In this document: piece by piece, positions 12,032-64,000 of the stretch
How positions within the stretch are numbered: the first letter of the stretch is position 1
Layout of the letters: every line of letters starts with the position of its first letter
IMG/VR virus record: IMGVR_UViG_3300028630_000295
Source: an uncultured virus (IMG/VR IMGVR_UViG_3300028630_000295)
Lineage: Duplodnaviria; Heunggongvirae; Uroviricota; Caudoviricetes
DNA: 64,000 bases
Direction: 5' to 3' (one strand)
Translations under genes and position numbers: made by a program
The notes under the pieces: generated by a model
Database searches by the model: none
Seen by the model: the letters and a program-made list of their open reading frames with translations, nothing else
Told to the model about the DNA's origin: nothing

Positions 12032-12049
12032 TTAGAACAAATAATAAAG
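12032..12049 (+). promoter_or_regulatory. Candidate late/middle phage promoter TTAGAACAAATAATAAAG (representative copy)
   Basis: Related copies with GAAC starting at 3837, 4740, 8521, 20447, 28550, 34346 and 60837, mostly just upstream of genes. Confidence 0.6.
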
Positions 12050-20423: not shown

Positions 20424-20488
20424 ATAGTAATCTCTATCTATTCTTAGAACAAATTATAAATAATATGAATCCTTCGGAGGATTTTAAC

Positions 20489-28055: not shown

Positions 28056-28650
28056 TATGGAAGAACAAGACAATTTAAAAATACTTCTTGGTTCAGTAGA
28101 TCCATTACCAGAAGTAGATGATGAAGAGAATGATGAAATGGCGGAACAAGCGTTTAAACAGTATGTTATGTTGGAAGTTTTAACAGCTATCGGAGAAGAG
28201 AACTTTAAAGAAATATACTATAATATGATAAATGAGATTAAGCAATATCCAATAGAAGAACAATTTACTTTTTGTAGGGCTATTTTAGCAAGAATAATGC
28301 AAGTCTATAATTTTGAGTTTCCAAGAGAAATAGATCTCTTAACAGCTGGAGCAGTACAACAAATATATATACTTATTGAATTTATAGAATTTAACCATAT
28401 TAATTTTATTTCAGAACTTATGAAACCATATAATTTCGACTTCAGAAAAGGAAATGCTAAAGATTTTATAGAACTAAACTATACAAAAATTGAAGGAGAC
28501 ATTGAAGTAATTTCTAGAAATGTTCCCGAGATAATTTCTGAATTTCTTAGAACATATAATAAAGAAGATTTAATAAATTGGTTAGTGAATAGAATAGAAA
28601 AGTCAAGAATGATAATCCTACTAAAAATGAAAGAAGGAGAATTTGTATGA
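28042..28650 (+). CDS. Hypothetical acidic protein
   Basis: Follows beta; likely start at ATG 28057. Confidence 0.6.
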   Translation: MKGTNMEEQDNLKILLGSVDPLPEVDDEENDEMAEQAFKQYVMLEVLTAIGEENFKEIYYNMINEIKQYPIEEQFTFCRAILARIMQVYNFEFPREIDLLTAGAVQQIYILIEFIEFNHINFISELMKPYNFDFRKGNAKDFIELNYTKIEGDIEVISRNVPEIISEFLRTYNKEDLINWLVNRIEKSRMIILLKMKEGEFV

Positions 28651-28935: not shown

Positions 28936-29138
28936 ATTTATAGAAAGAAGGAAATTATCAACTAAATTTTCAAATATTTCAATTATAAAACAAGTGTAAA
29001 TCAAATGGCCAAGGATAAGTATCTGTTTTCTAAAAAAGACGGATATCTTTATCCTACGTCGTTATATAATAATAATAATAGAAAGGAGGTTATAATTTTT
29101 TGGGGTTTTTCTTCTAATACTGTGTTTGGAAGGGGAAT

Positions 29139-29372
29139 ATGAGAACAGAGAGAGATACCAAATTGAGAAGGAGAACAGAAGAGTTCTTACGAAGTAGTAA
29201 GAGAGATATCATTATTGCATTTGGAATTGTTTGTGGATTTGTTGAATCTTTCACCGAAGAAGTGGATGAAAGAAAAGTCAGAAGAAAGATTGAAGATGCT
29301 ATCCGGAAGGATGACGAGTTACTAAAGGCACTGGCACGGGCTATCAAAAGACTTGAAGCCGACGCAGATTGA
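29139..29372 (+). CDS. Hypothetical small charged protein
   Basis: GGAAGGGG RBS-like sequence; 77 aa. Confidence 0.5.
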   Translation: MRTERDTKLRRRTEEFLRSSKRDIIIAFGIVCGFVESFTEEVDERKVRRKIEDAIRKDDELLKALARAIKRLEADAD

Positions 29373-29429
29373 ATAGAAATATTCATGAAAACAATTGCCT
29401 TCAAAACTAATAAGACTACAGGCATTTAT

Positions 29430-29498
29430 GCTACTAGTATGGTTAGTTTTACTTATTTAGTTACGAAACTAATTAGTAAAGCTAACCATACTAGTAGC
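29430..29498. repeat. Long inverted repeat / hairpin (~30 bp stem)
   Basis: GCTACTAGTATGGTTAG / CTAACCATACTAGTAGC is a perfect 17-bp pair, continued by TTTTACT/AGTAAAG and TTAGTT/AACTAA. Confidence 0.85.
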
Positions 29499-29505
29499 TG
29501 AATCC

Positions 29506-29538
29506 TGTTTTTATAAACTCTTTTTGTTTTTATAAACT
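29506..29538. repeat. Direct repeat TGTTTTTATAAACT x2
   Basis: Copies at 29506 and 29525 in a T-rich tract. Confidence 0.7.
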
Positions 29539-29570
29539 ATTTTTGTTTAGAAATTAAAAAATCCGAATCC

Positions 29571-31158: not shown

Positions 31159-32409
31159 ATGTCAAATGGGAAGAAACAAGAGTTAAAATACTTTGAGAAG
31201 TTAAATATTTCTGTATTATCAATTGATAAAATTAAAGAATTAATTAAATCCAATATCGTTAATACCATGAGGTGTTGGGAAAAGGGAAAAGATGTTCAAA
31301 AAATTACCTTTCATATTATTGGTCCAGCGGGTGTTGGAAAGACGCAAGTGTGTGGTCAAATAAAAGATGAGCTTACAAAAGAAACTGGAAAGAAATGGAA
31401 CATGATTATGATTAAGAGTCCAGTTCTTTCTAGGGATGATTTTCTTATTCCATTCCCAGTAACTGACAACGGAAACACAAAGTTTAAAATGTTATACTCA
31501 GACTTTGTTCCAACAGGTCAAGATAGTTGTGGTTTATTTGTCATTGACGAGTTTTCTCGCGGTGACCATAATTTACAGCAGTTGATGTGGCAGGTTCAAA
31601 ATGAGTATAAACTTCATTTATACGATTTTCCAAGAAACTGGTTTGTCATTTGTACAGATAACCCAGATGACCAAGAATATAGTATGGACTATTTAGAAGA
31701 TGCTGCAGGATTAAGAAGAACTCTTCATATTTATAGCGAAGTTTCTGCTGCAGCATTTTTGAGGTTTGCAAGACAATCTTCTTATCATCCTTTGGTTATT
31801 GAGTTTATTGAAGCTCATCCAGAGTATGTATATGACTTTGATTCTCAGAAGGTTGGAAGTGTTTATGCAAATCCAGCAAGCTGGGAGAAGGTTTCAGATA
31901 CTCTTTGGGGATTTGAAATGAACGGTGGTATAGAAGAGAATCTTAATAAACTAGAACCTCTAGCTTCTGGATTATTAAATACAAGTAAGACTAGAATGTT
32001 TATTGATTATATCAAGAGTAGAGAAGCAATTTCTCCAAGGGATATTCTCGATAAATATGAAACGGTTAAAAAGACGATTGCAAAGTATGTCAAGGAAGGT
32101 CACAATGTAAGACTTGGTCAGTTGATGGATTCTTTTATTTCCTTCCTTGTTGATACAAAACCAGCTCTGAATGATGAAAGATTAAAGAATATTGGAACAT
32201 TCATTTGTGATGTCCCATCAGATACAGCTGCTATTCTTGTTACTAAGACTGATTCTTATGACAGGAAGAGTGAAGAGTTTAAGTATATGACTAAAGTTCA
32301 TACCTCGCTATTCAGCTCTTCTCAGGATTATAAGAAGAAGTTCTATGAAACAATGACAGCTATTGGAGATAAAGCTGCATCAAACGAAGCATTGAAGAAG
32401 GGAAGGTAA
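31159..32409 (+). CDS. MoxR-like AAA+ ATPase
   Basis: GPAGVGKT, FVIDEFSR, CTDNP, LRR, NPASWE; adjacent to a vWA gene. Confidence 0.85.
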   Translation: MSNGKKQELKYFEKLNISVLSIDKIKELIKSNIVNTMRCWEKGKDVQKITFHIIGPAGVGKTQVCGQIKDELTKETGKKWNMIMIKSPVLSRDDFLIPFPVTDNGNTKFKMLYSDFVPTGQDSCGLFVIDEFSRGDHNLQQLMWQVQNEYKLHLYDFPRNWFVICTDNPDDQEYSMDYLEDAAGLRRTLHIYSEVSAAAFLRFARQSSYHPLVIEFIEAHPEYVYDFDSQKVGSVYANPASWEKVSDTLWGFEMNGGIEENLNKLEPLASGLLNTSKTRMFIDYIKSREAISPRDILDKYETVKKTIAKYVKEGHNVRLGQLMDSFISFLVDTKPALNDERLKNIGTFICDVPSDTAAILVTKTDSYDRKSEEFKYMTKVHTSLFSSSQDYKKKFYETMTAIGDKAASNEALKKGR

Positions 32410-33818
32410 TGAAAGCAGATACCAGTGAAAGATTAAGGGAATTGATAGTACAGTTAACTTTCGCTGACTCGTATTGGGGATATTTGTTTTCAAGAGTTAG
32501 AAGAGTGGAAAAACAAATGCCGTATGCTATGGCAGTTACTCCAGATCCAGATGGAACAATTCATCTCTGGTATAATAAAGAGATGGTTGATGGATCAGAT
32601 GATTTTACTATCTTCAAGATTCTTGAGCATGAAGGTATGCATATATTGAATAAACATATCTCAAGATTTTTTAGATTAATTGCTGATGAAATTTCTCCAT
32701 ATGAAGTTCTAAAAAAGAGAGAGATTTTAATGTATGCAGCTGACATGGCAGTTAACACACAAATGAATATGCCAAGAAAGTTAACTGTTAATAGGCAGGA
32801 GTTTATTCCTGTCTTTCCTGAACCATATAATTTGGAACCAAAAAAGACATTGGAATACTATTACCTTGAACTGCAAAAATTGTCAAATCAGGGTGGTGGT
32901 GGAGGAAAGAAACAAAAGCAAAAAATTCAAGGAATTTCTGTTGGTGGTGGTAAAGAAAAAGGTGAAGGTGAAGGAGAATCTGAAGGTGAATCTAATGGGA
33001 AGGGAAAAGATCAACAACAGAACCAAAACAGTAATGGATTGGGTGGCGGAGAAAAAGGTGAGTTTATTGATGACCACTCAATTTGGATAGAAGTAGCTGA
33101 AAAATGTGAAGATCCAAATGCAATGTCAAGGAAACTTGATAACTTTGCAACCAATATTATTTTGGATGCGTATAGATCTGTTTCTGATCGAGGAAAAATT
33201 CCTGCTGGAATTCTTGATATGATTCAGAAAGCTCTTGAACCAGCAAGAGCTCCATACTATCAGATAATCAGGAAACTAGTCAGGGGTTCCAGGATGACTA
33301 AGTTTGAGAGATGCTTTACCAGAATAAATAGGAAGAGAACTTATGCATTTGCAATTAGTTCAAATCCTAATAGACCTGCAATATGTCCTTTTCCTGGAAA
33401 GACAAGAGATTTCTCATTCAACATTGGTATTCTTCTGGATTCTTCTGGAAGCATGTCATTAGATGATATCATGGAAGGATTATCTGGAGTAAAGAATATC
33501 ATTGAAAGTGATAGACATTGCAAAACAACTATCATTGAATGTGATGCTCAAATTCAAAAAGAATATATTTGCAAGAGATTGAAAGATATTGATTTTCAAA
33601 TTAAGGGTCGTGGAGGAACAACATTATTTCCAGCACTTTCTAGATTTAAAGATCTGGATGTGGATGTTGTTTTAGCATTTACTGATGGGTATTGTGAAAA
33701 TGTAAACGAAATTAGAAGAACACTATTACCAAAAAAGATTATTTGGGTAATTACAAATAACCGGGGAACTACTGAGAATATCAATAAAACTGGATTTGTA
33801 GTTGTCCTGAATAAATAA
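32409..33818 (+). CDS. DUF2201-type metallopeptidase-vWA protein
   Basis: HEGMH, AADMAVN, G/E-rich linker, DDHSIW, LDSSGSM (MIDAS), GRGGT, FTDG. Confidence 0.85.
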   Translation: MKADTSERLRELIVQLTFADSYWGYLFSRVRRVEKQMPYAMAVTPDPDGTIHLWYNKEMVDGSDDFTIFKILEHEGMHILNKHISRFFRLIADEISPYEVLKKREILMYAADMAVNTQMNMPRKLTVNRQEFIPVFPEPYNLEPKKTLEYYYLELQKLSNQGGGGGKKQKQKIQGISVGGGKEKGEGEGESEGESNGKGKDQQQNQNSNGLGGGEKGEFIDDHSIWIEVAEKCEDPNAMSRKLDNFATNIILDAYRSVSDRGKIPAGILDMIQKALEPARAPYYQIIRKLVRGSRMTKFERCFTRINRKRTYAFAISSNPNRPAICPFPGKTRDFSFNIGILLDSSGSMSLDDIMEGLSGVKNIIESDRHCKTTIIECDAQIQKEYICKRLKDIDFQIKGRGGTTLFPALSRFKDLDVDVVLAFTDGYCENVNEIRRTLLPKKIIWVITNNRGTTENINKTGFVVVLNK

Positions 33819-33835: not shown

Positions 33836-34345
33836 ATGAAGATCATCGAAGCGTTGAAGAAGTTAAAGGTCATTGAAAAGCGAATGGAGAAAAACAGACA
33901 ACAAATTACCCAGTATGCTTCAATGATCAGTACGGAGAGACCAATCTTCGATACTGAGGAAAAGCAGAGAAAGGAAGTTTCTTCTTTGATTCAATCAAAC
34001 ACAGATCTGATGAAAGAGTATCTCGATCTGAAAGGAAAGATTGAGAAAACGAATATCACTGTTAAGGTTGAAATGGGTGGTGTTCAGTACTCAATCTCGG
34101 ATCTTCTTCTCATTAAGAGAAAGATGGCAAAAGTCATGATGAGCACTTACGAGGCGCTGAATACATCAGCAGGACAGTCGAGACTGAGACAAGTTTCGAT
34201 TGGTGCTGGGGAAAGGTCACCTCAAGTTGTTCAACTCTATGATGAGAAGGATAAAATTGCAGGCTTGGATAAGTGGCAGGATCTATATCACAATATAGAT
34301 TCTCGCCTTGAGGTCATCAACGCAACGACTGACCTCATGGAATAA
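33836..34345 (+). CDS. DIP1984/DUF6847-like coiled-coil protein
   Basis: MKIIEALK..., KIEKTN, YSISDLL, IDSRLEVINATTDL match the family pattern as recalled; strong AAGGAG RBS; more C/G-ending codons than neighbours. Confidence 0.6.
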   Translation: MKIIEALKKLKVIEKRMEKNRQQITQYASMISTERPIFDTEEKQRKEVSSLIQSNTDLMKEYLDLKGKIEKTNITVKVEMGGVQYSISDLLLIKRKMAKVMMSTYEALNTSAGQSRLRQVSIGAGERSPQVVQLYDEKDKIAGLDKWQDLYHNIDSRLEVINATTDLME

Positions 34346-34353
34346 GAACAAAT

Positions 34354-34655
34354 AATAAAGGGTGATAGTTTTGGTGATGTAAAGAAGTAGGAATTAAGAG
34401 TCCCTCCTAATGGGGTCATATTAGGATACATGGCTAAGGATAATTGTTTATCCTTTTTAAGACATGGTGATATACCATATCTTCAAGACTTACGTCTAAA
34501 GGTTCAAGACTTACACGATGCCCTACGTGGATAAATAAGGGCTTCTAAAGTCTCAGGACTAAGGACTCAAGGCTGGGAGAAAACCAGGTCAAGTGGTGCT
34601 TTAATTCTTGGCATCTATACCACTTCTGGCTGTCATTGGAGCTTCACCCTTTATT
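34354..34655 (+). ncRNA. Unidentified ~300-nt structured RNA with phased 7-nt repeats
   Basis: Ends pair (AATAAAGGGTGA/TCACCCTTTATT) and extend through a G-U-rich helix; five internal hairpins; YTHARGN heptamers; promoter-like motif at 34346; no ORF. Confidence 0.8.
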
Positions 34656-34683
34656 TTACGTTAATTTTGAAAGGTGATTTTAT

Positions 34684-35088
34684 ATGAGAATGAAATTGGA
34701 TTTTGTGACGAATAGTTCCTCAAGTTCCTTTATTGCTTGGGGAATATGTACAGATATTGGAGAACTAAAAAATAATGTAACTCTATCAGACCTTTTATAT
34801 AATGATTATTTATTAACATTAAAAGATGATGAACCATTAACAAAAGAAGAGTTCTTTGAGCAAGATAGATGGGACTTTATTGATTATTTTGATAGATTTC
34901 TTGGTAAACATGGAAATGGGTTACAATATTCTTCACGAGAAGATTATATCTACATTGGTGTTGACCCATTTGAAATTGAAGATAATGAAACAGGGTTGGA
35001 ATTTAAACAGAGAATCATGAAAGCATTTAAGTCAATTGGTATAAATACAAAATTAGAAAAAATTGAAGAATCATGGTATGATGGGTGA
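34684..35088 (+). CDS. FVTNSSS-leader family protein 1
   Basis: MRMKLDFVTNSSSSSF. Confidence 0.75.
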   Translation: MRMKLDFVTNSSSSSFIAWGICTDIGELKNNVTLSDLLYNDYLLTLKDDEPLTKEEFFEQDRWDFIDYFDRFLGKHGNGLQYSSREDYIYIGVDPFEIEDNETGLEFKQRIMKAFKSIGINTKLEKIEESWYDG

Positions 35089-35092
35089 GTTT

Positions 35093-35284
35093 ATGCCAAG
35101 AGATCGTAGATTATGTATATTTTTAATGATGGCAAATATTATAGCTAAGAACTTGAATCCAAAAATTCATTCTATGTGTTTAGGAAAAGAATGTGAACAT
35201 TTTAAACTAAAAGAAAATTCCCAAAATCTTTATTATTGTGGAATTTCTGGAGAATCTGTAAGTTCAGATAGTACTAAAGAATAG
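35093..35284 (+). CDS. Hypothetical small Cys-containing protein
   Basis: ATG after GGTGAG; C...CxxxxC...C. Confidence 0.5.
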   Translation: MPRDRRLCIFLMMANIIAKNLNPKIHSMCLGKECEHFKLKENSQNLYYCGISGESVSSDSTKE

Positions 35285-35292
35285 AGGTAATT

Positions 35293-35894
35293 ATGAGAAT
35301 AAAAGAAGATTTTGTTACTAACTCGAGTAGTACATCATTTGTACTTTCAGCTATTTGTATTGGTCACATTCCATATACGAAAATGGATCTTACAAAGAGC
35401 CTAAAAAGAAAATTCAAACTAGCTAAACATGAGTTAAATTCATATTCTGATAATGATAGATTTTCATTTGTAAAGTATTTAAACATTTCGATATGGGATC
35501 CAGATAATGACGACATTGATGAACCATCTGACGATGGTTATTTGTCAGTAGAAGTTTTTAATGGTGATATGAGTTATTATGACGAGAACGAAAAAAAATA
35601 GAAGATTTGAGAACTATCGTGAAAATATGTGTTACCACACCAACTCTTTATGCTAAAGATGAAGGAAGATTAGTTAACTTAGTTATAAATAATTTGAAAA
35701 CAATATTATCTACTATAAAGGAAGATTTTATTGTAGATTTATTTTATTCTCAAAATGTTAAAGATATTTATGGTGATGGTTGGGATGGTGGAGATCCAAT
35801 GGGTCCATATGAGTGGACAAAAGATGTTTATGAACAGGAAACAAAACTTGGAAGAATTACAGGCGGAAAAGGATTCTTAAGATTTTCAAGATAA
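35293..35894 (+). CDS. FVTNSSS-leader family protein 2, interrupted by a -1 frame change at an A8 run
   Basis: 35293..35601 ends GAA AAA AAA TAG; the -1 frame continues ATA GAA GAT TTG into ORF 35607..35894, which has no RBS. Confidence 0.6.
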
Positions 35895-42025: not shown

Positions 42026-43932
42026 TTTATTTAAAACGAAAAGAGAAGAGATGGAACCAGATGTTAAAAGGGAAGTGAATAGATTAGAAGATAATCTTTC
42101 AATTGCAGCTGAATGGATGCAGAGATCAGTAACAAAATCTAACGAAGTTAAAGAACATGATGAATGTTCTGAGTTCTGTTCTTCTTGTGATGGTACTGGT
42201 TACTTAAAAAAAGATATAAGATTGTTGTATTTATGTAAAGCCTGTTTTGGTGCTGGAAGTATATATTGGATAGATAGATGCTTGACAGCATCAAGAGTTT
42301 CAGAGTATGAAATGAAAATGCATACTCAAAACTGCAAGAATATTCATACTCTTATATATGAACTCAAACATGAAGCTATGAAAATAGGAGCAGTTGCTTT
42401 AGTTGAAATAAAACCTATGGAACCACCAAATACTGAAGAAATAGTAAGAAAACTCTCAGGCTTAAACTTGTTTGGAGGAATCCGTAAAGATGGGACCGAA
42501 TGAAGTTGGATATTTAGAACCAAGAAAATGTCACACCTGTAATGGGCATGGGAAATACAATAAGTATATTCCCATGCCAGGTGGTACTCTACAAAAAGTA
42601 GAAGTAGAATGTATGATGTGTGAAGGAAAAGGATTCGTAGATATGATAGATGAAATAAATACTGACTCTAAAACTAGGGTGTAAAATGGGAAATTTTGTA
42701 TGTCCATTATGTCATGGTTGTAAAACGATAGTTATTAAAATAAATCCTTGTGATGCCCCTAATATTATTAAAAATTGTCATTTATATTGTTGTCTATGTG
42801 GAGGGGCAGGTTACTATCATAAAGAGATACTATGTACTGCATGTGGAGGAAAAGGATATAGAGATTGGGTTGATGTTATAAGAAGACCCTATTTGGGAGA
42901 TTATAATGCTACCAATAAAAATTTGTTGTAAATGTGTTGGATCTGGTTTTGATCTTGAGTATCTAGTTGAATCAAAGACAATGAGTTTTGTTGATTGTAA
43001 ACACTGTAAAGGTACAGGATATAGATTCTGGATAGATGATATTTTAAGACCAACAGGAAATAAAAATGGAACAGAAAAAGGAAACTCCTTGGCAATGGAC
43101 TGAGCTAGAAAATAAAATTAGAGATGAAGGATTTGTTCCGTGTCCTGTATGCCACGGAACAAAACAAGACGTACTTACAGGTAGAAAAGTTTGTGAAGAT
43201 TGTGGAGGAACGAAAAAAGTAGCAAGATATAATAATAGTGTGTTTATTCCATGTAATCGGTGTGATAAAGATGGAACACATTTTTATGCTAAGTGGATAA
43301 CGTGCGAATATTGTAAAGGAACTGGATTAAGAACATGGGTGGACACAATGATACGACCCGTACCTGTTCAGTATGCAGAGGACAAGGAGTATTAAGAGCT
43401 CTACACTCTAAAAGAGAATGTTTAATATGTGACAATAAATATGAATCTGTAACATTGAATAATCAGAAGTTCTTTTATACTTCTAGTACCTCAATGTGTA
43501 ATCTTTGTCAATCAGTATGTGTAATAGATTCAATGGAGAGTGTGGTTGTTTCATGCCCTCATTGTTTGGGAACAGGAACAAGAACATGGATAGATAAAAT
43601 TGTTAGACCATATAATAAATCTAGATTAGAAAATGAATTATTTAGAATAATAGTAAGAACAGACGAGGGATTCCGTGAAGGATATGAATTGGATTAAATG
43701 TTCTGTATGTGGAGGTCTTGGTATACACAGAGAAGAAAACAATATAGAATGTGTATATTGTGGTAGTCTTGGTTGTAAATGGGATAGTAAAAAAGGAAAA
43801 ATTATAACATGTGAAGATTGCAAAGGAGATGGTTATGTAACGGGAATTATTCATAACTATTGTAGGTTTTGTAAAGGTGAAGGAAAAAGATACTGGACAG
43901 ATGTTATAATGAGACCAATTCTGGGAAGGTAA
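42000..43932 (+). CDS. Tandem cluster of seven small zinc-finger genes (42000-42503, 42472-42684, 42686-42931, 42906-43103, 43066-43395, 43335-43697, 43675-43932)
   Basis: Each has CxxCxGxG repeats, mostly ending CxxCxGxGxxxW(I/V/T)Dx(I/V)xRP. Confidence 0.8.
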
Positions 43933-62548: not shown

Positions 62549-62552
62549 AAAC

Positions 62553-64000
62553 ATGCCTTCATTGTTGGATCAAAACAAATTCGTTGAGGATTTGCCGGAA
62601 GTTTCTTCTGTATCAATTATGAGCAAAAGAAAGTTCCATCCAGAAGGACTTTTCTCTGAGCAGATTTTTGGACCTCTCAAAAATTATACATGCCAATGTG
62701 GAGTATATTATGGTTCTTCTAAATCAGGTGGGAAGTGCAAAACTTGCCAGGTTGATATAGTGAATAACAATGAGAGGAGAAAAAGGTTTGCTAAGATTAG
62801 ACTTCCTATTCCTGTAGTTAATCCAATCTTTTATGATCTCATTGTTAGTATTGGTGGGAATAACTTAAAGGCTACGATTGACACATTGATGAAAAAAGAC
62901 GATGTTAGTCTTTATAAGGATGGAAATGATTATGTATGCGTAGACGATAAATTAGTTCCTCCAAAAGTTAAAAAATGGGAAACATTAGAAGCAATCAATG
63001 AACTTATTACTGGAATTACAAAAGAAAATGTTAAAGGTGGGAATAAAAATTGGAAAATTATTCAAGATAATTTAGATAAACTATTTCTAAATTATGTTAT
63101 TGTTCTCCCACCTGATTTGAGACCAGCAGCAAAAGGGATTGAAAAGAACAGTCAGGTAGTAGATAAAATTAATAGATATTATATGCAAATACTAACTAAA
63201 AAAGAAATAATGAAAGAAACTATTATTAATGTAACCAATAATAAACAATTATTTTATACTTATTTTAAGCAGTTACAAAAAGATGTAAACGAATTATATG
63301 AGCATATTATTGAAAAGCTATCTAAAAAAGAAGGCTTAATCAGGGGAAATATTCTTGGAAAGAGAATTGACTTTTCTGGTCGAGCAGTTATCATTCCAGA
63401 TCCAACCCTATCTTTAGATGAATGTTGTTTACCATATATTATGGTTCTGGAATTGTTCAAGTTAAAAATCTCCAAAATTTTGATTGAGCTTGGAAAATTT
63501 AAACTTCTTAATGATGCTGTTGATTATATTGACAAGTGTATTGAATATAAAATTCCGGCTCTATACAAAATTGCAGAAGAAGCAATTTATGACGAAGTTT
63601 GTTTATTGAATAGACAACCATCTCTGCATAGATTGAGCATGGTTGGTTTCAAAATTAAGATGTCAGTGGATAATGTTATTAAAATTCACCCATTGGTTTG
63701 CTCTGGATTTAACGCAGACTTCGATGGAGATCAGATGGCTGTTTATATTCCAGTATCTGAAGAAGCTAAAGAAGAACTCAGACAAAAATTTCTATCAACA
63801 AAAAATCTTACAAATCCAGCAAACGAGAGTTTAACTACAACTCCAAGTCAGGATATTGTTCTTGGGATATATACATTGACATCTCATAGATTTAAAGAAT
63901 TAGAAGGTAAAGTAGAATATAAAGGAAAAGAAATTACAGAAGCACAAAAAATATTTAATGAAGCACTACCAGAATCTTATCCAATTATTGATTATGTTGT
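62553..64000 (+). CDS. RNA polymerase beta'-like subunit, copy 2 (3' truncated by window; missing from ORF track)
   Basis: Manual translation: MPSLLD...GLFSEQIFGPLKNYTCQC...CKTC...VLPPDLRP...LGKRIDFSGRAVI...NRQPSLH...GFNADFDGDQM (63711-63731); GAGGAG RBS. Confidence 0.95.
   Translation, partial: MPSLLDQNKFVEDLPEVSSVSIMSKRKFHPEGLFSEQIFGPLKNYTCQCGVYYGSSKSGGKCKTCQVDIVNNNERRKRFAKIRLPIPVVNPIFYDLIVSIGGNNLKATIDTLMKKDDVSLYKDGNDYVCVDDKLVPPKVKKWETLEAINELITGITKENVKGGNKNWKIIQDNLDKLFLNYVIVLPPDLRPAAKGIEKNSQVVDKINRYYMQILTKKEIMKETIINVTNNKQLFYTYFKQLQKDVNELYEHIIEKLSKKEGLIRGNILGKRIDFSGRAVIIPDPTLSLDECCLPYIMVLELFKLKISKILIELGKFKLLNDAVDYIDKCIEYKIPALYKIAEEAIYDEVCLLNRQPSLHRLSMVGFKIKMSVDNVIKIHPLVCSGFNADFDGDQMAVYIPVSEEAKEELRQKFLSTKNLTNPANESLTTTPSQDIVLGIYTLTSHRFKELEGKVEYKGKEITEAQKIFNEALPESYPIIDYV

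Follow-up and report, generated by a model that had tools for sequence, protein, structure and literature searches.

The locus considered here lies in a 64,000-nt stretch of DNA (hereafter the window) from an uncultured virus of the Caudoviricetes and raises a simple question: does the non-coding block immediately downstream of a gene for a 169-aa protein specify an RNA and, if so, do RNA and protein belong together? An earlier note on this DNA, made from its letters, had proposed as much, reading the block as a non-coding RNA with phased 7-nt repeats that forms a ribonucleoprotein system with the product of the upstream gene. The coordinates it gave all agree with the sequence, and the observation proves to be real and conserved (Table 1).

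Table 1. Features of the gene-RNA locus, in window coordinates.
Feature	Position	Strand	Basis or remark
169-aa helical-protein gene	33836-34345	+	ORF call; TAA stop at 34343-34345
15-nt motif GAACAAATAATAAAG	34346-34360	+	possible phage promoter or processing signal; overlaps RNA start
Structured RNA, ~300 nt	34354-34655	+	closing stem, fold, covariance model, RNA-library contigs
RNA core matched by covariance model R1	34366-34644	+	208 bits, E 8e-43
Closing stem P1, 5' strand	34354-34379 (extension 34354-34365, core 34367-34379)	+	partner 34631-34655
Junction starting with conserved UAAA, within GYGUAAA motif	34380-34399	+	
Pseudoknot 1	34400-34426	+	H-type
Variable hairpins P3 (34436-34455) and P3b (34464-34478)	34436-34478	+	window fold
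Heptad array 1, five UNAAG-type units	34483-34517	+	starts 34483, 34490, 34497, 34504, 34511
Pseudoknot 2	34514-34542	+	H-type
Heptad array 2, four units	34546-34573	+	starts 34546, 34553, 34560, 34567
3' domain: GAGAAAA (34577-34583), helix P6, hairpin P7 inside P6	34577-34629	+	
U-rich tract at P1 foot, possible transcript end	34650-34658	+	family consensus

That the window encodes a highly structured non-coding RNA on its plus strand is confirmed. The folding energy is -105.1 kcal/mol on this strand (z -5.0; equalled by 0 of 100 shuffles) and -89.4 kcal/mol on the minus strand. A covariance model, R1, returned 70 matches, 46 of them outside the seed alignment and all on the same strand as the gene; the window, being part of that seed, matches over the full model length by construction. 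In the R1 alignment, which was fitted to the model and therefore leans towards it, 93.0% of cells pair, against 37-43% when partners are slid, and compensatory changes are found in 30 of 32 nested pairs, with 0 of 500 shuffles reaching any of these measures. A separate MAFFT/RNAalifold run that preceded R1 recovered compensatory changes in 14 of 21 pairs. Both the closing stem and the 7-nt phasing, on whose recurrence in homologous loci the earlier note had staked its reading, are conserved. The terminal G-U pair of the closing stem P1 is invariant in all 56 sequences, and G-U pairs occur often elsewhere too, which argues for an RNA, and for one made from the plus strand. A DNA palindrome or MITE can thus be discarded, given the conserved G-U pairs, the covariation, the better plus-strand fold, cover in RNA libraries and the presence of one copy only in a complete phage genome of 277 kb.

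No known family accounts for this RNA. None of the curated Rfam 15 families matches the window at its gathering score, matches at E <= 10 are at chance level, and across eight related loci Rfam recognised tRNAs and nothing else, so that the earlier note was right to name no family. A tmRNA, recognisable by a reading frame for the tag and a tRNA-like domain that has a T-arm and an acceptor end, was considered and rejected, as ARAGORN found neither tRNA nor tmRNA in the window and Rfam no tmRNA even at E <= 10; RNase P and other known RNAs likewise went unmatched by ARAGORN and Rfam.

The family layout runs from a stem ending in G-U and followed by UAAA, through pseudoknot 1, array 1, pseudoknot 2 with its GRUAAA, array 2 and an A-rich tract with helices P6 and P7, to a final CUGGCUG. 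P1 is built as the earlier note described: AATAAAGGGTGA (34354-34365) pairs with TCACCCTTTATT (34644-34655) in the extension and AGUUUUGGUGAUG (34367-34379) with UGUCAUUGGAGCU (34631-34643) in the core, where we count 7 G-U pairs from the sequence. Compensatory changes affect 12 of the 13 core pairs, with pairing in 95.7% of cells; in L249, the closest relative, the extension covaries as well. Alignment positions G34, A36 and A37 of the adjoining junction are invariant in 47 sequences.

Two segments formerly read as hairpins, TCCTAAT/ATTAGGA and GCCCT/AGGGC, do pair, but as the second stems of two pseudoknots. In pseudoknot 1 a CCC/GGG stem (34402-34404 with 34412-34414) encloses the loop UCCUAAU (34405-34411), which pairs with AUUAGGA (34420-34426). 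In sub-alignment A6 (50 sequences), 67.2% of the cells of this pseudoknot are paired, against 31.6-48.6% when slid, with a covariation score of 0.47 against 0.11-0.20 (0 of 500 shuffles). Pseudoknot 2 combines a CACG/CGUG stem (34514-34517 with 34526-34529; compensatory changes in 4 of 4 pairs, 100% of cells paired) with pairing of its loop GCCCU (34520-34524) to AGGGC (34538-34542) across the A-rich GAUAAAUA (34530-34537). This second stem is a helix of at least 4 bp in 55 of 57 sequences covering the region, and L007 (GTCCCA/TGGGAT) and L270 (GTCCTA/TAGGAT) differ by a clean double change. In the 3' domain, P6 pairs CCAG (34584-34587) with CUGG (34626-34629; 100% paired, compensatory changes in 3 of 4 pairs), and the P7 hairpin (34591-34625) pairs 34591-34597 with 34619-34625 (compensatory changes in 6 of 6 pairs). 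Three further helices proposed in the earlier note, AGAAGU/ACUUCU, GAAUUAAG/UUUAAUUC and CUGG/CCAG (34574/34584), have to be given up: they are not conserved and clash with the covarying P6 and P7. The region of P3 and P3b is variable; in many relatives P3 is a 5-bp stem with a 7-nt CUUGAAA loop (alignment read by eye), and one divergent relative, L300, has a complete tRNA at this position.

Both arrays are predicted to be single-stranded, with five and four UNAAG units 7-8 nt apart, and begin at 34482/34483 and 34545/34546, just where the heptamers had been placed before. The family consensus of array 1 reads TnAAGnn TnAaGnn tnaAgnnn TnAaGnn TaAc, and U, A and G of every unit are invariant or nearly so across 47 sequences; the stems vary. 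Could phasing of this kind arise by chance? The window holds two runs of four in-phase U.A.G units. Runs of at least four appear in none of 5000 shuffles of the 338-nt spacer, and neither strand of the 64-kb window has another run of three or more. Two variants in RNA libraries, 34561 A>C and 34568 C>A, sit at the free second position of units in array 2. Tandem Repeats Finder returned nothing in the region, because the units are too degenerate, and a simple count of AG at lag 7 over whole spacers was uninformative. The idea that heptads mimic T-loops was dropped, as in the heptads the position corresponding to the invariant T-loop C can be any base.

Contigs from RNA libraries of four studies concentrate on 34366-34648. 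In X15 the RNA is covered by a contig of depth 263 and the gene at 2.6-3.6, contig depth being a poor measure of abundance; in X16 a single 262-nt contig spans 34380-34641. Contigs end at 34641-34648 in three studies, a weak hint of the transcript end, and the family consensus finishes in ...GGAnCCnTTTnTTTTT; a scan for consensus terminators found none. One contig of low depth reads through from 34615 to 34995. Window stretches without contigs (33400-33800, 35150-35400) carry no evidential weight.

At the other end, the 15-mer GAACAAATAATAAAG had been called promoter-like. It does recur, with an exact second copy at 12035-12049 in an intergenic gap, near-copies at 28550 (one mismatch) and 20447 (two mismatches), and 21 matches at up to three mismatches against 12.8 +/- 3.9 in shuffles; GAACAAA also comes after the stop codon in L001, L003 and L010. 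At the present locus, however, the 3' half of the motif doubles as the 5' strand of the closing stem in its extended form.

What, then, is the protein? It is a distant, sub-threshold relative of DIP1984/DUF6847, the family that the earlier note had named. NCBIfam DIP1984_fam matches at E 1.3e-7 (31.8 bits, below the cut-off of 70) in an alignment that runs end to end (residues 2-167 on model positions 1-149 of 149), and Pfam DUF6847, matched at E <= 0.01 by 19 of 34 aligned homologues, at E 2.1e-4 (21.7 bits, below the cut-off of 27). The AF2 model (pLDDT 90.6) is a helical bundle with one beta-hairpin, the top two PDB matches of which in Foldseek are 3kdq_C and 3kdq_A (probability 1.00, TM 0.51/0.56, 168 columns, E 2e-3), with the next match at E 0.23. 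At 9-10 A the rmsd of this superposition is high, as one would expect of helical bundles that flex. When the family profile was searched against PDB sequences, nothing came back at E <= 1. We know of no function for DIP1984/DUF6847 (PDB 3KDQ, from Corynebacterium diphtheriae), and a literature search found no functional account of it. Deinococcus radiodurans alone among the control genomes has a true DIP1984 member. One neighbouring cluster in the ESM Atlas is named 'Siphovirus Gp157 family protein' (score 0.94), which we take as a lead only.

Modelled with itself, the protein, which the earlier note had envisaged as a ring or filament with one unit per 7 nt, gave a symmetric two-copy interface, not a ring, at a score of 0.71 compared with 0.01 for the best of three controls; at least 91% of contacts agree between runs and partner pLDDT is at least 86. 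The 0.71 mark is reached by 20 of 30 proteins solved as same-chain pairs and 1 of 23 solved as single chains, a calibration that is only rough here because our own alignment and four copies were used, and because 3KDQ is a solved relative the model may draw on memory.

Having established what the two partners look like, we can ask how faithfully they travel together. We collected 218 homologues of the protein. R1 detects the RNA in 67 of the 77 protein loci for which 330 nt or more of downstream sequence exist, some of these loci being duplicates across collections, and in 59 of the 67 the RNA starts within 100 nt of the gene, which bears out the proposed genetic pairing. Among the ten loci without an R1 match, four (L299, L300, L302, L306) carry a divergent version of the RNA recognisable by eye, two (L257, L263) have other ORFs downstream, one (L268) has tRNAs, and three (L301, L305, L317) match the protein only in part. 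When eight neighbouring proteins of the window were compared, the DIP1984-like one alone was met again outside the closest relative; nothing but protein and RNA stays together from locus to locus. Searching in the opposite direction, a first RNA-only pattern was too loose and none of the matches listed was true; a second, narrow one gave 108 stretches, 6 of them true and all in contigs already found via the protein, with contig identity resting on identical scores alone for three of the six. These scans recovered no locus with the RNA and without the gene, though with so narrow a pattern the RNA may still occur alone elsewhere. A single-protein search found no close relatives in viral contigs.

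Blastn of the window locus against cultured phages found nothing. Diverged pairs are discernible by eye and in a four-sequence alignment in T5, Cronobacter phage GAP31, Pseudomonas phage COT4 and Bacillus phage Thrax5. All four share the window's layout and have clade-specific motifs (NAAAG, UUUAG), all with NAG; the Thrax5 version, UUUAGNN, has exact UAG-N4 spacing and was recognised by eye only, R1 matching neither its locus nor the whole Thrax5 record. Judging from this comparison, the classic phage T5 apparently carries the pair, in the form of gene T5.085, mislabelled tail fiber, followed by an unannotated gap. Blastn of the T5-type RNA stretch hits 451 phage records; hardly any of those listed annotates it.

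How might such a pair work? We favour, at a probability of roughly 55%, a discrete, stable RNA that forms a defined RNA-protein particle with its dedicated DIP1984-like partner and acts in trans as an accessory factor. Structure, conservation, gene linkage, strand and presence in RNA libraries are established; from these we infer binding, stoichiometry, end formation and role as follows. The RNA would be a rigid scaffold, made of P1, the two A-rich H-type pseudoknots and the P6/P7 domain, that holds out two single-stranded arrays whose units contain NAG. These units would be read in succession by the protein, probably in the form of symmetric dimers, by analogy with HutP and TRAP. The transcript's 3' end may be set by P1 and the U-tract or, where a tRNA gene abuts the RNA, by tRNA 5' processing. 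The particle might then serve as an accessory factor linked to the phage's set of tRNA and translation genes, or in counter-defence.

Several observations sit less well with this proposal. The protein's fold is unlike that of HutP or TRAP, neither of which families it matches in Pfam, NCBIfam or PHROG; no known RNA-binding domain was detected in the same three collections; and its pI of 8.9 is only mildly basic. The nine units, spaced 7,7,8,7 and 7,8,7, have no obvious mapping onto dimers. The RNA could also serve another partner, be it a host protein, tRNAs or itself. As for the analogy, the TRAP oligomer reads repeated NAG triplets in unstructured RNA (11 GAG/UAG repeats in the trp leader), and here, too, phased NAG triplets (nine UNAAG units in 47 sequences) lie in single-stranded RNA beside a putative reader. 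The units here are, however, 7-8 nt apart and not 5, the protein is no ring-forming beta-sandwich, and the context is one of phage tRNA clusters.

A close precedent is the hut operon of Bacillus subtilis, where HutP binds UAG-N4 repeats in two clusters and governs a terminator/antiterminator. Might the present RNA be a cis-acting device of this type, with protein binding deciding the fate of a P1 + U-tract terminator and hence read-through into downstream genes? We consider this unlikely. Gene order is the same (hutP, repeat RNA, downstream genes), NAG-type triplets recur every 7 nt in two single-stranded clusters directly after the presumed binder's gene, a U-rich tract follows P1 in the family consensus and could together with it act as a terminator, tRNAs or other genes come next on the same strand, and the read-through contig would fit. 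Yet the repeats are interspersed with pseudoknots that covary as a single, fixed fold, no conserved alternative terminator/antiterminator pairing is seen, and the consensus terminator scan was empty. In L011 and L012 a tRNA starts at the RNA end with no U-tract, and elsewhere the RNA is kept 0.5-2.9 kb from the gene (2.6-2.9 kb in L285 and L253). The RNA also appears to accumulate stably; in one library it seems to exceed both neighbouring genes by far in abundance, weak evidence in itself. Further differences from hut are the helical, DIP1984-like bundle of unrelated fold, nine units instead of six, and the sheer size of the RNA (~300 nt, two conserved pseudoknots, a closing stem of 13-25 bp).

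Alternatively, the RNA may be a sponge or decoy for a host factor (a protein that binds NAG, a defence enzyme that cuts RNA, or a toxin) or a platform that pairs with tRNA anticodon loops. It would work without help from the protein next door, whose part would be limited to chaperoning or stabilising it. One RNA presenting many copies of a short single-stranded motif does recall sponges of the CsrB/RsmZ type, which carry many GGA motifs in hairpin loops; here the arrays are contiguous and phased, the motif is NAG, and the presumed partner is encoded next door. The pair lies within phage tRNA clusters in 17 of the 22 loci chosen for scan, the AAG units resemble Lys codons, and the UAG-N4 spacing of Thrax5 equals the HutP site, in a Bacillus phage. 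The behaviour of the gene in culture would moreover suit a counter-defence factor: in the CRISPRi-ART phage T5 source-data table, T5.085 is listed as 'Not Fit' (PMC11879866, supplement file 7), so that the protein is apparently dispensable under those laboratory conditions, a point that also tells against the favoured particle. Against this, the motif varies by clade (UNAAG, NAAAG, UUUAG, NAAGG) and the linked protein diverges in step, which is more in keeping with a phage partner that co-evolves than with a host target that stays fixed; PADLOC found no defence-family match; and loops of neighbouring phage tRNA-Leu(UAA/CAA) mostly have A, not G, opposite the invariant G, an observation that also led us to reject the heptads as anticodon-loop mimics. 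On balance a sponge or platform is unlikely.

A machine made of RNA only, self-assembling or catalytic, with gene linkage reflecting co-expression and nothing more, is very unlikely. GOLLD and ROOL are reported next to tRNA genes in phages, as is the RNA described here, and the large, intricate fold with its A-rich pseudoknots invites the comparison. Both are large ornate phage-associated RNAs (bioRxiv 10.1101/2024.12.08.627333). Their Rfam models do not match our RNA, which is smaller and has heptad arrays and an obligate protein-gene neighbour, its most conserved letters are in unpaired repeats rather than junctions, and it is very tightly linked to one protein family across otherwise unrelated contexts. 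A toxin-antitoxin pair of type III, with the RNA as antitoxin as the earlier note had suggested among its alternatives, is most improbable, for although a protein gene beside a repetitive, pseudoknotted phage RNA is reminiscent of ToxIN-like systems, in which an antitoxin of ~34-36-nt tandem repeats lies upstream of an endoribonuclease toxin gene, here the RNA is downstream, Tandem Repeats Finder sees no repeats of ~36 nt, Pfam and PADLOC show no ToxN, CptN or TenpN-type match, and the predicted fold is a helical bundle and no nuclease fold.

Returning to the trans-acting particle, one may go further and imagine a widespread phage class in which DIP1984-like dimers polymerise on phased NAG heptads, themselves presented by a scaffold of pseudoknots, and act on tRNA or translation, or disarm RNA-directed defence, a generalisation we offer tentatively and at somewhat less than even odds. 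Such a class would span T5-like, rV5-like, Bacillus and huge phages and have relatives among cellular DIP1984 proteins. Be that as it may, the pair looks like a class not described so far, keeping in mind that older papers on T5 stable RNAs may hold a description. Few large structured RNAs have a protein partner of their own, and those known are for the most part central machines. The pair would provide a first functional handle on DIP1984/DUF6847, put right a 'tail fiber protein' mislabel that is widespread, and exemplify a new way for a protein to read short RNA motifs in phase; phage control of translation, or counter-defence, may also prove to have a further layer. Since T5 appears to carry the pair, a direct test in E. 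coli K-12 is possible. Stable non-tRNA RNAs are familiar from phage tRNA regions, T4 rnaC/rnaD being examples, and NC_005859 annotates in T5 an 'rnaX, stable RNA with unknown functions'; the putative T5 copy of the heptad RNA, at 43143-43493 on the minus strand of the same record, is not among the features annotated for that stretch.

The window, from a large phage, is densely coded on the plus strand, and the 338-nt spacer 3' of the 169-aa protein gene is among its largest non-coding gaps. An earlier note had proposed, from the sequence alone, that this gene is paired with a ~300-nt RNA carrying phased 7-nt repeats; its coordinates all proved correct when checked against the window. The plus strand of the spacer folds at -105.1 kcal/mol, far below shuffled sequence (z -5.0), against only -89.4 kcal/mol for the minus strand, a difference expected if G-U pairs matter.

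Coordinates of the features discussed, in the window and in phage T5
Feature	Sequence	Position	Strand	Remark
MoxR-type AAA ATPase, then DUF2201 protein	window	31159-33818		directly 5' of the 169-aa gene
169-aa protein gene	window	33836-34345	+	ORF
RNA	window	34354-34655	+	
Small paralogous gene pair	window	34684-35088; 35293-35601		directly 3' of the RNA
Recurring motif GAACAAATAATAAAG	window	12035-12049; 20447-20461; 28550-28564; 34346-34360	+	at or near gene starts
Short ORF	window	29114-29425	-	
Hairpin	window	29426-29570		stem 29430-29498
ORF	window	from 29571	+	
Largest non-coding gap	window	62549-63259		711 nt
RNA polymerase beta/beta'-like, topoisomerase II, ribonucleotide reductase, clamp loader, SbcCD	window			other genes
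T5.085	NC_005859	43505-44143	-	likely diverged T5 counterpart of the protein
RNA-like stretch of T5	NC_005859	43143-43493		unannotated

Public data hold 218 homologues of the protein. We took the surrounding DNA from three collections (21 loci from viral contigs, 58 from metagenome contigs and 11 from species genomes, all of the latter being MAG contigs), and in nearly all loci fetched the DNA 3' of the gene is visibly similar. A first alignment of 16 sequences (MAFFT/RNAalifold) gave 21 pairs, 14 of them with compensatory changes. A covariance model, R1, was then seeded with 24 sequences (298 positions, 32 pairs); searched against 92 sources it returned 70 matches, every one sharing the protein gene's strand. 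In the 59 distinct rows of the resulting alignment, 93.0% of cells are paired, compared to 37-43% when partners are slid, compensatory changes occur in 30 of the 32 pairs, and none of 500 shuffles matches any of five measures; having been fitted to R1, these rows are biased toward the structure, yet the independent earlier alignment agrees with the result.

Two additional helices are pseudoknots. In the first, the loop of a CCC/GGG hairpin pairs with the strand directly 3' of that hairpin; in a 50-sequence sub-alignment, 67% of cells are paired versus 32-49% when slid, with a covariation score of 0.47 versus 0.11-0.20. In the second, the loop of a CNCG/CGNG hairpin reaches over an A-rich linker (GRUAAAUA) to pair beyond it. 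Of the 57 sequences covering this region, 55 have such a helix of at least 4 bp, which shows a clean double change between the near relatives L007 and L270. Read from the alignments without a formal count, the first variable hairpin has in many members a 5-bp stem and a 7-nt CUUGAAA loop. Searching the window and eight related loci against Rfam 15 matched tRNAs and no other family.

Which parts of the RNA are conserved as sequence? Outside the helices, conservation in the model alignment is highest at nine units arranged in two arrays, with consensus TnAAGnn TnAaGnn tnaAgnnn TnAaGnn TaAc for the first and TcAaGnn TnAaGnnn nnAaGnn TnAAG for the second. Units are spaced 7,7,8,7 and 7,8,7 (the window's own first array being 7,7,7,7); within a unit U, A and G show little or no variation, and the second position is unconstrained. 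Across the 64-kb window, four in-phase U.A.G units in a row occur twice, both times here, and 5000 shuffles produced no such run. Since sequence is kept in unpaired RNA while the flanking helices vary freely, the heptads carry what reads as the signature of a recognition site.

Ninety loci were fetched via the protein, some being one contig present in two collections, and 77 of these offer at least 330 nt 3' of the gene. The RNA is present (E <= 0.01) in 67 of the 77, starting within 100 nt of the gene in 59; in the remainder it lies 241-2925 nt away, with inserted genes between. Among the ten loci missed by R1, four (L299, L300, L302, L306) encode proteins 29-34% identical and carry, as judged by eye, a divergent related RNA with the core GAGAUAAAAACUGGCAAAA ... 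CAGGCUUC and NAAGG units; L302 and L306 give weak R1 matches, and a fifth locus of this type, L298, scores 43 bits. Other ORFs are found at L257 and L263 and tRNAs at L268, and L301, L305 and L317 are partial protein matches. Two scans of viral contigs for the RNA pattern alone recovered only loci that also carry the gene, and a complete phage genome of 277 kb carries the RNA exactly once. Seven other window proteins were tested as neighbours of the homologues, and none reappeared outside L249, a relative with 89% identity; gene and RNA thus form a two-part module.

Is the RNA made? Of 2 kb surrounding the locus, six RNA runs cover about one fifth and DNA runs up to 95%. We compared four RNA runs, from four activated sludge or wastewater studies and all as contigs, with the locus. 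Their contigs cluster on 34366-34648: in X15 one covers 34387-34539 at a depth of 263 against 2.6-3.6 over the protein gene, X16 has a single 262-nt contig (34380-34641), and contigs of X17 and X18 end at 34644 and 34648. Read-through into the next gene is seen in one low-depth contig. Contig variants at 34561 and 34568 each affect a heptad at its free second position, and one contig has the sequence of an L249-type relative. As contigs give neither strand, true ends nor reliable levels, these data hint at a discrete, abundant RNA but do not prove it.

Same-strand tRNA genes lie in the fetched flanks of 17 of 22 loci that we selected, and none in the window. In L011 and L012 a tRNA-Met starts at the end of the RNA, and in L015, L016 and L020 a tRNA follows 11-50 nt past it. 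A complete tRNA with anticodon UCA sits inside the divergent RNA of L300 (2521-2594), at the position of the variable hairpins, which hints that this RNA is processed into two pieces. A UCA anticodon would read UGA, a further hint that the phage reassigns or suppresses this stop codon. The divergent RNA of L299 holds, at 1540-1620, tRNA pieces that resemble a T-arm and a 5' half and are permuted in order, for which ARAGORN calls no tRNA.

The protein is a full-length relative of the DIP1984/DUF6847 family, which the earlier note had named, with a sub-threshold score; PHROGs assigns it to phrog_1491, 'tail fiber protein'. AlphaFold models the protein (pLDDT 90.6) as a bundle of helices plus one beta-hairpin, and the only close solved structure is that of a functionally uncharacterised protein from Corynebacterium diphtheriae, 3KDQ (probability 1.00, TM 0.51/0.56). 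Modelled as four copies, it self-associates at 0.71, against 0.01 for the best of three controls, a mark reached by 20 of 30 solved one-chain pairs and 1 of 23 solved single chains, although this calibration is only rough given our own alignment and the four copies, and the pass may reflect memory since a solved relative exists. At least 91% of contacts agree between runs, with partner pLDDT of at least 86. The scored copy contacts a single partner copy, and each side contributes the same residues, so that the model predicts a symmetric pair. Invariant residues include K8, K15, K66, R95 and R157, along with the aromatics Y27, F38, Y85 and W147. The residues named for the predicted interface do not include the conserved C-terminal SRLEVINAT helix, which we therefore infer to be a candidate RNA-binding face.

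The RNA is a single-copy, strand-specific, heavily constrained fold whose unpaired parts hold conserved phased NAG units, strictly coupled genetically to one protein family and present in RNA libraries. How might the pair work? The main alternative is a cis regulator like that of the hut operon, with which the locus shares both gene order and repeat code. Such a regulator fits poorly with a single fixed RNA fold, with displaced and tRNA-abutting copies, and with the RNA's apparent accumulation. We favour a particle acting in trans: symmetric protein dimers would dock on successive heptads to give a defined assembly, the RNA ends would be set by termination at the closing stem P1 plus U-tract or, next to an abutting tRNA, by processing of that tRNA, and the particle might act in the sphere of tRNA and translation or of counter-defence. 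Our literature search, with older subscription papers on T5 RNAs outside its scope, found no description of the RNA or of the protein family's function.

Diverged pairs appear in cultured phages. With the window protein, tblastn led to Bacillus phage Thrax5, where six tRNAs precede the gene and a 388-nt gap follows, with closing stem GAUGUAAA ... CUAGGCUGUUAUG and UUUAGNN heptads. The Thrax5 protein in turn matched 166 phage records, for the most part T5-like Escherichia and Salmonella phages in which the gene is labelled 'tail fiber protein'. That label, on T5.085, on relatives in ~160 phage records and on phrog_1491, seems to be an annotation error, carried from record to record, for a DIP1984-like helical protein. 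The spacer of the T5-like phage JLBYU40 (folding z -6.6) has closing stem ends GACGAAAG ... CUAGGCUGUUUAU, a CCUCG/CGAGG hairpin with loop pairing after UUAAAUAAG, NAAAG heptads and a 3' domain, AAAC-CCUAG-AUCAAAG ... CUAGG, laid out as in the window. By blastn this stretch occurs in 451 phage records, almost never annotated among the 40 matches listed. The layout is shared by Cronobacter phage GAP31, there within a tRNA cluster, and by Pseudomonas phage COT4. A four-sequence alignment, spanning three lineages only and thus indicative and no more, suggests that P1 and a helix like P6 of the 3' domain are kept through compensatory changes. An hhalign comparison of the family profile with T5.085 gives a probability of 63% (E 7e-5). 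We regard these pairs as likely, though not proven, homologues of the pair in the window. The CRISPRi-ART paper (PMC11879866, supplement file 7) enters T5.085 as 'Not Fit' in its table of T5 source data.

Other features of the window deserve mention. The DUF2201 protein has metallopeptidase-like and VWA-like domains; T5-like phages, perhaps by coincidence, also have genes with a metallopeptidase annotation 5' of the homologous gene, and tblastn found no MoxR/DUF2201 relatives in the other loci. The paralogues share the N-terminus MR(M/I)K.DFVTNSSS.SF, and family searches with them gave weak matches at most. The largest gap folds somewhat more stably than shuffled sequence (z -2.9). The recurring motif, two copies exact and two with 1-2 mismatches, may serve the phage's own RNA polymerase as a promoter. 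Finally, the near-perfect hairpin of ~30 bp, followed by U-rich sequence and lying between the two tabulated ORFs (-47.3 kcal/mol, z -9.1), could be a bidirectional terminator, an origin or a further RNA.
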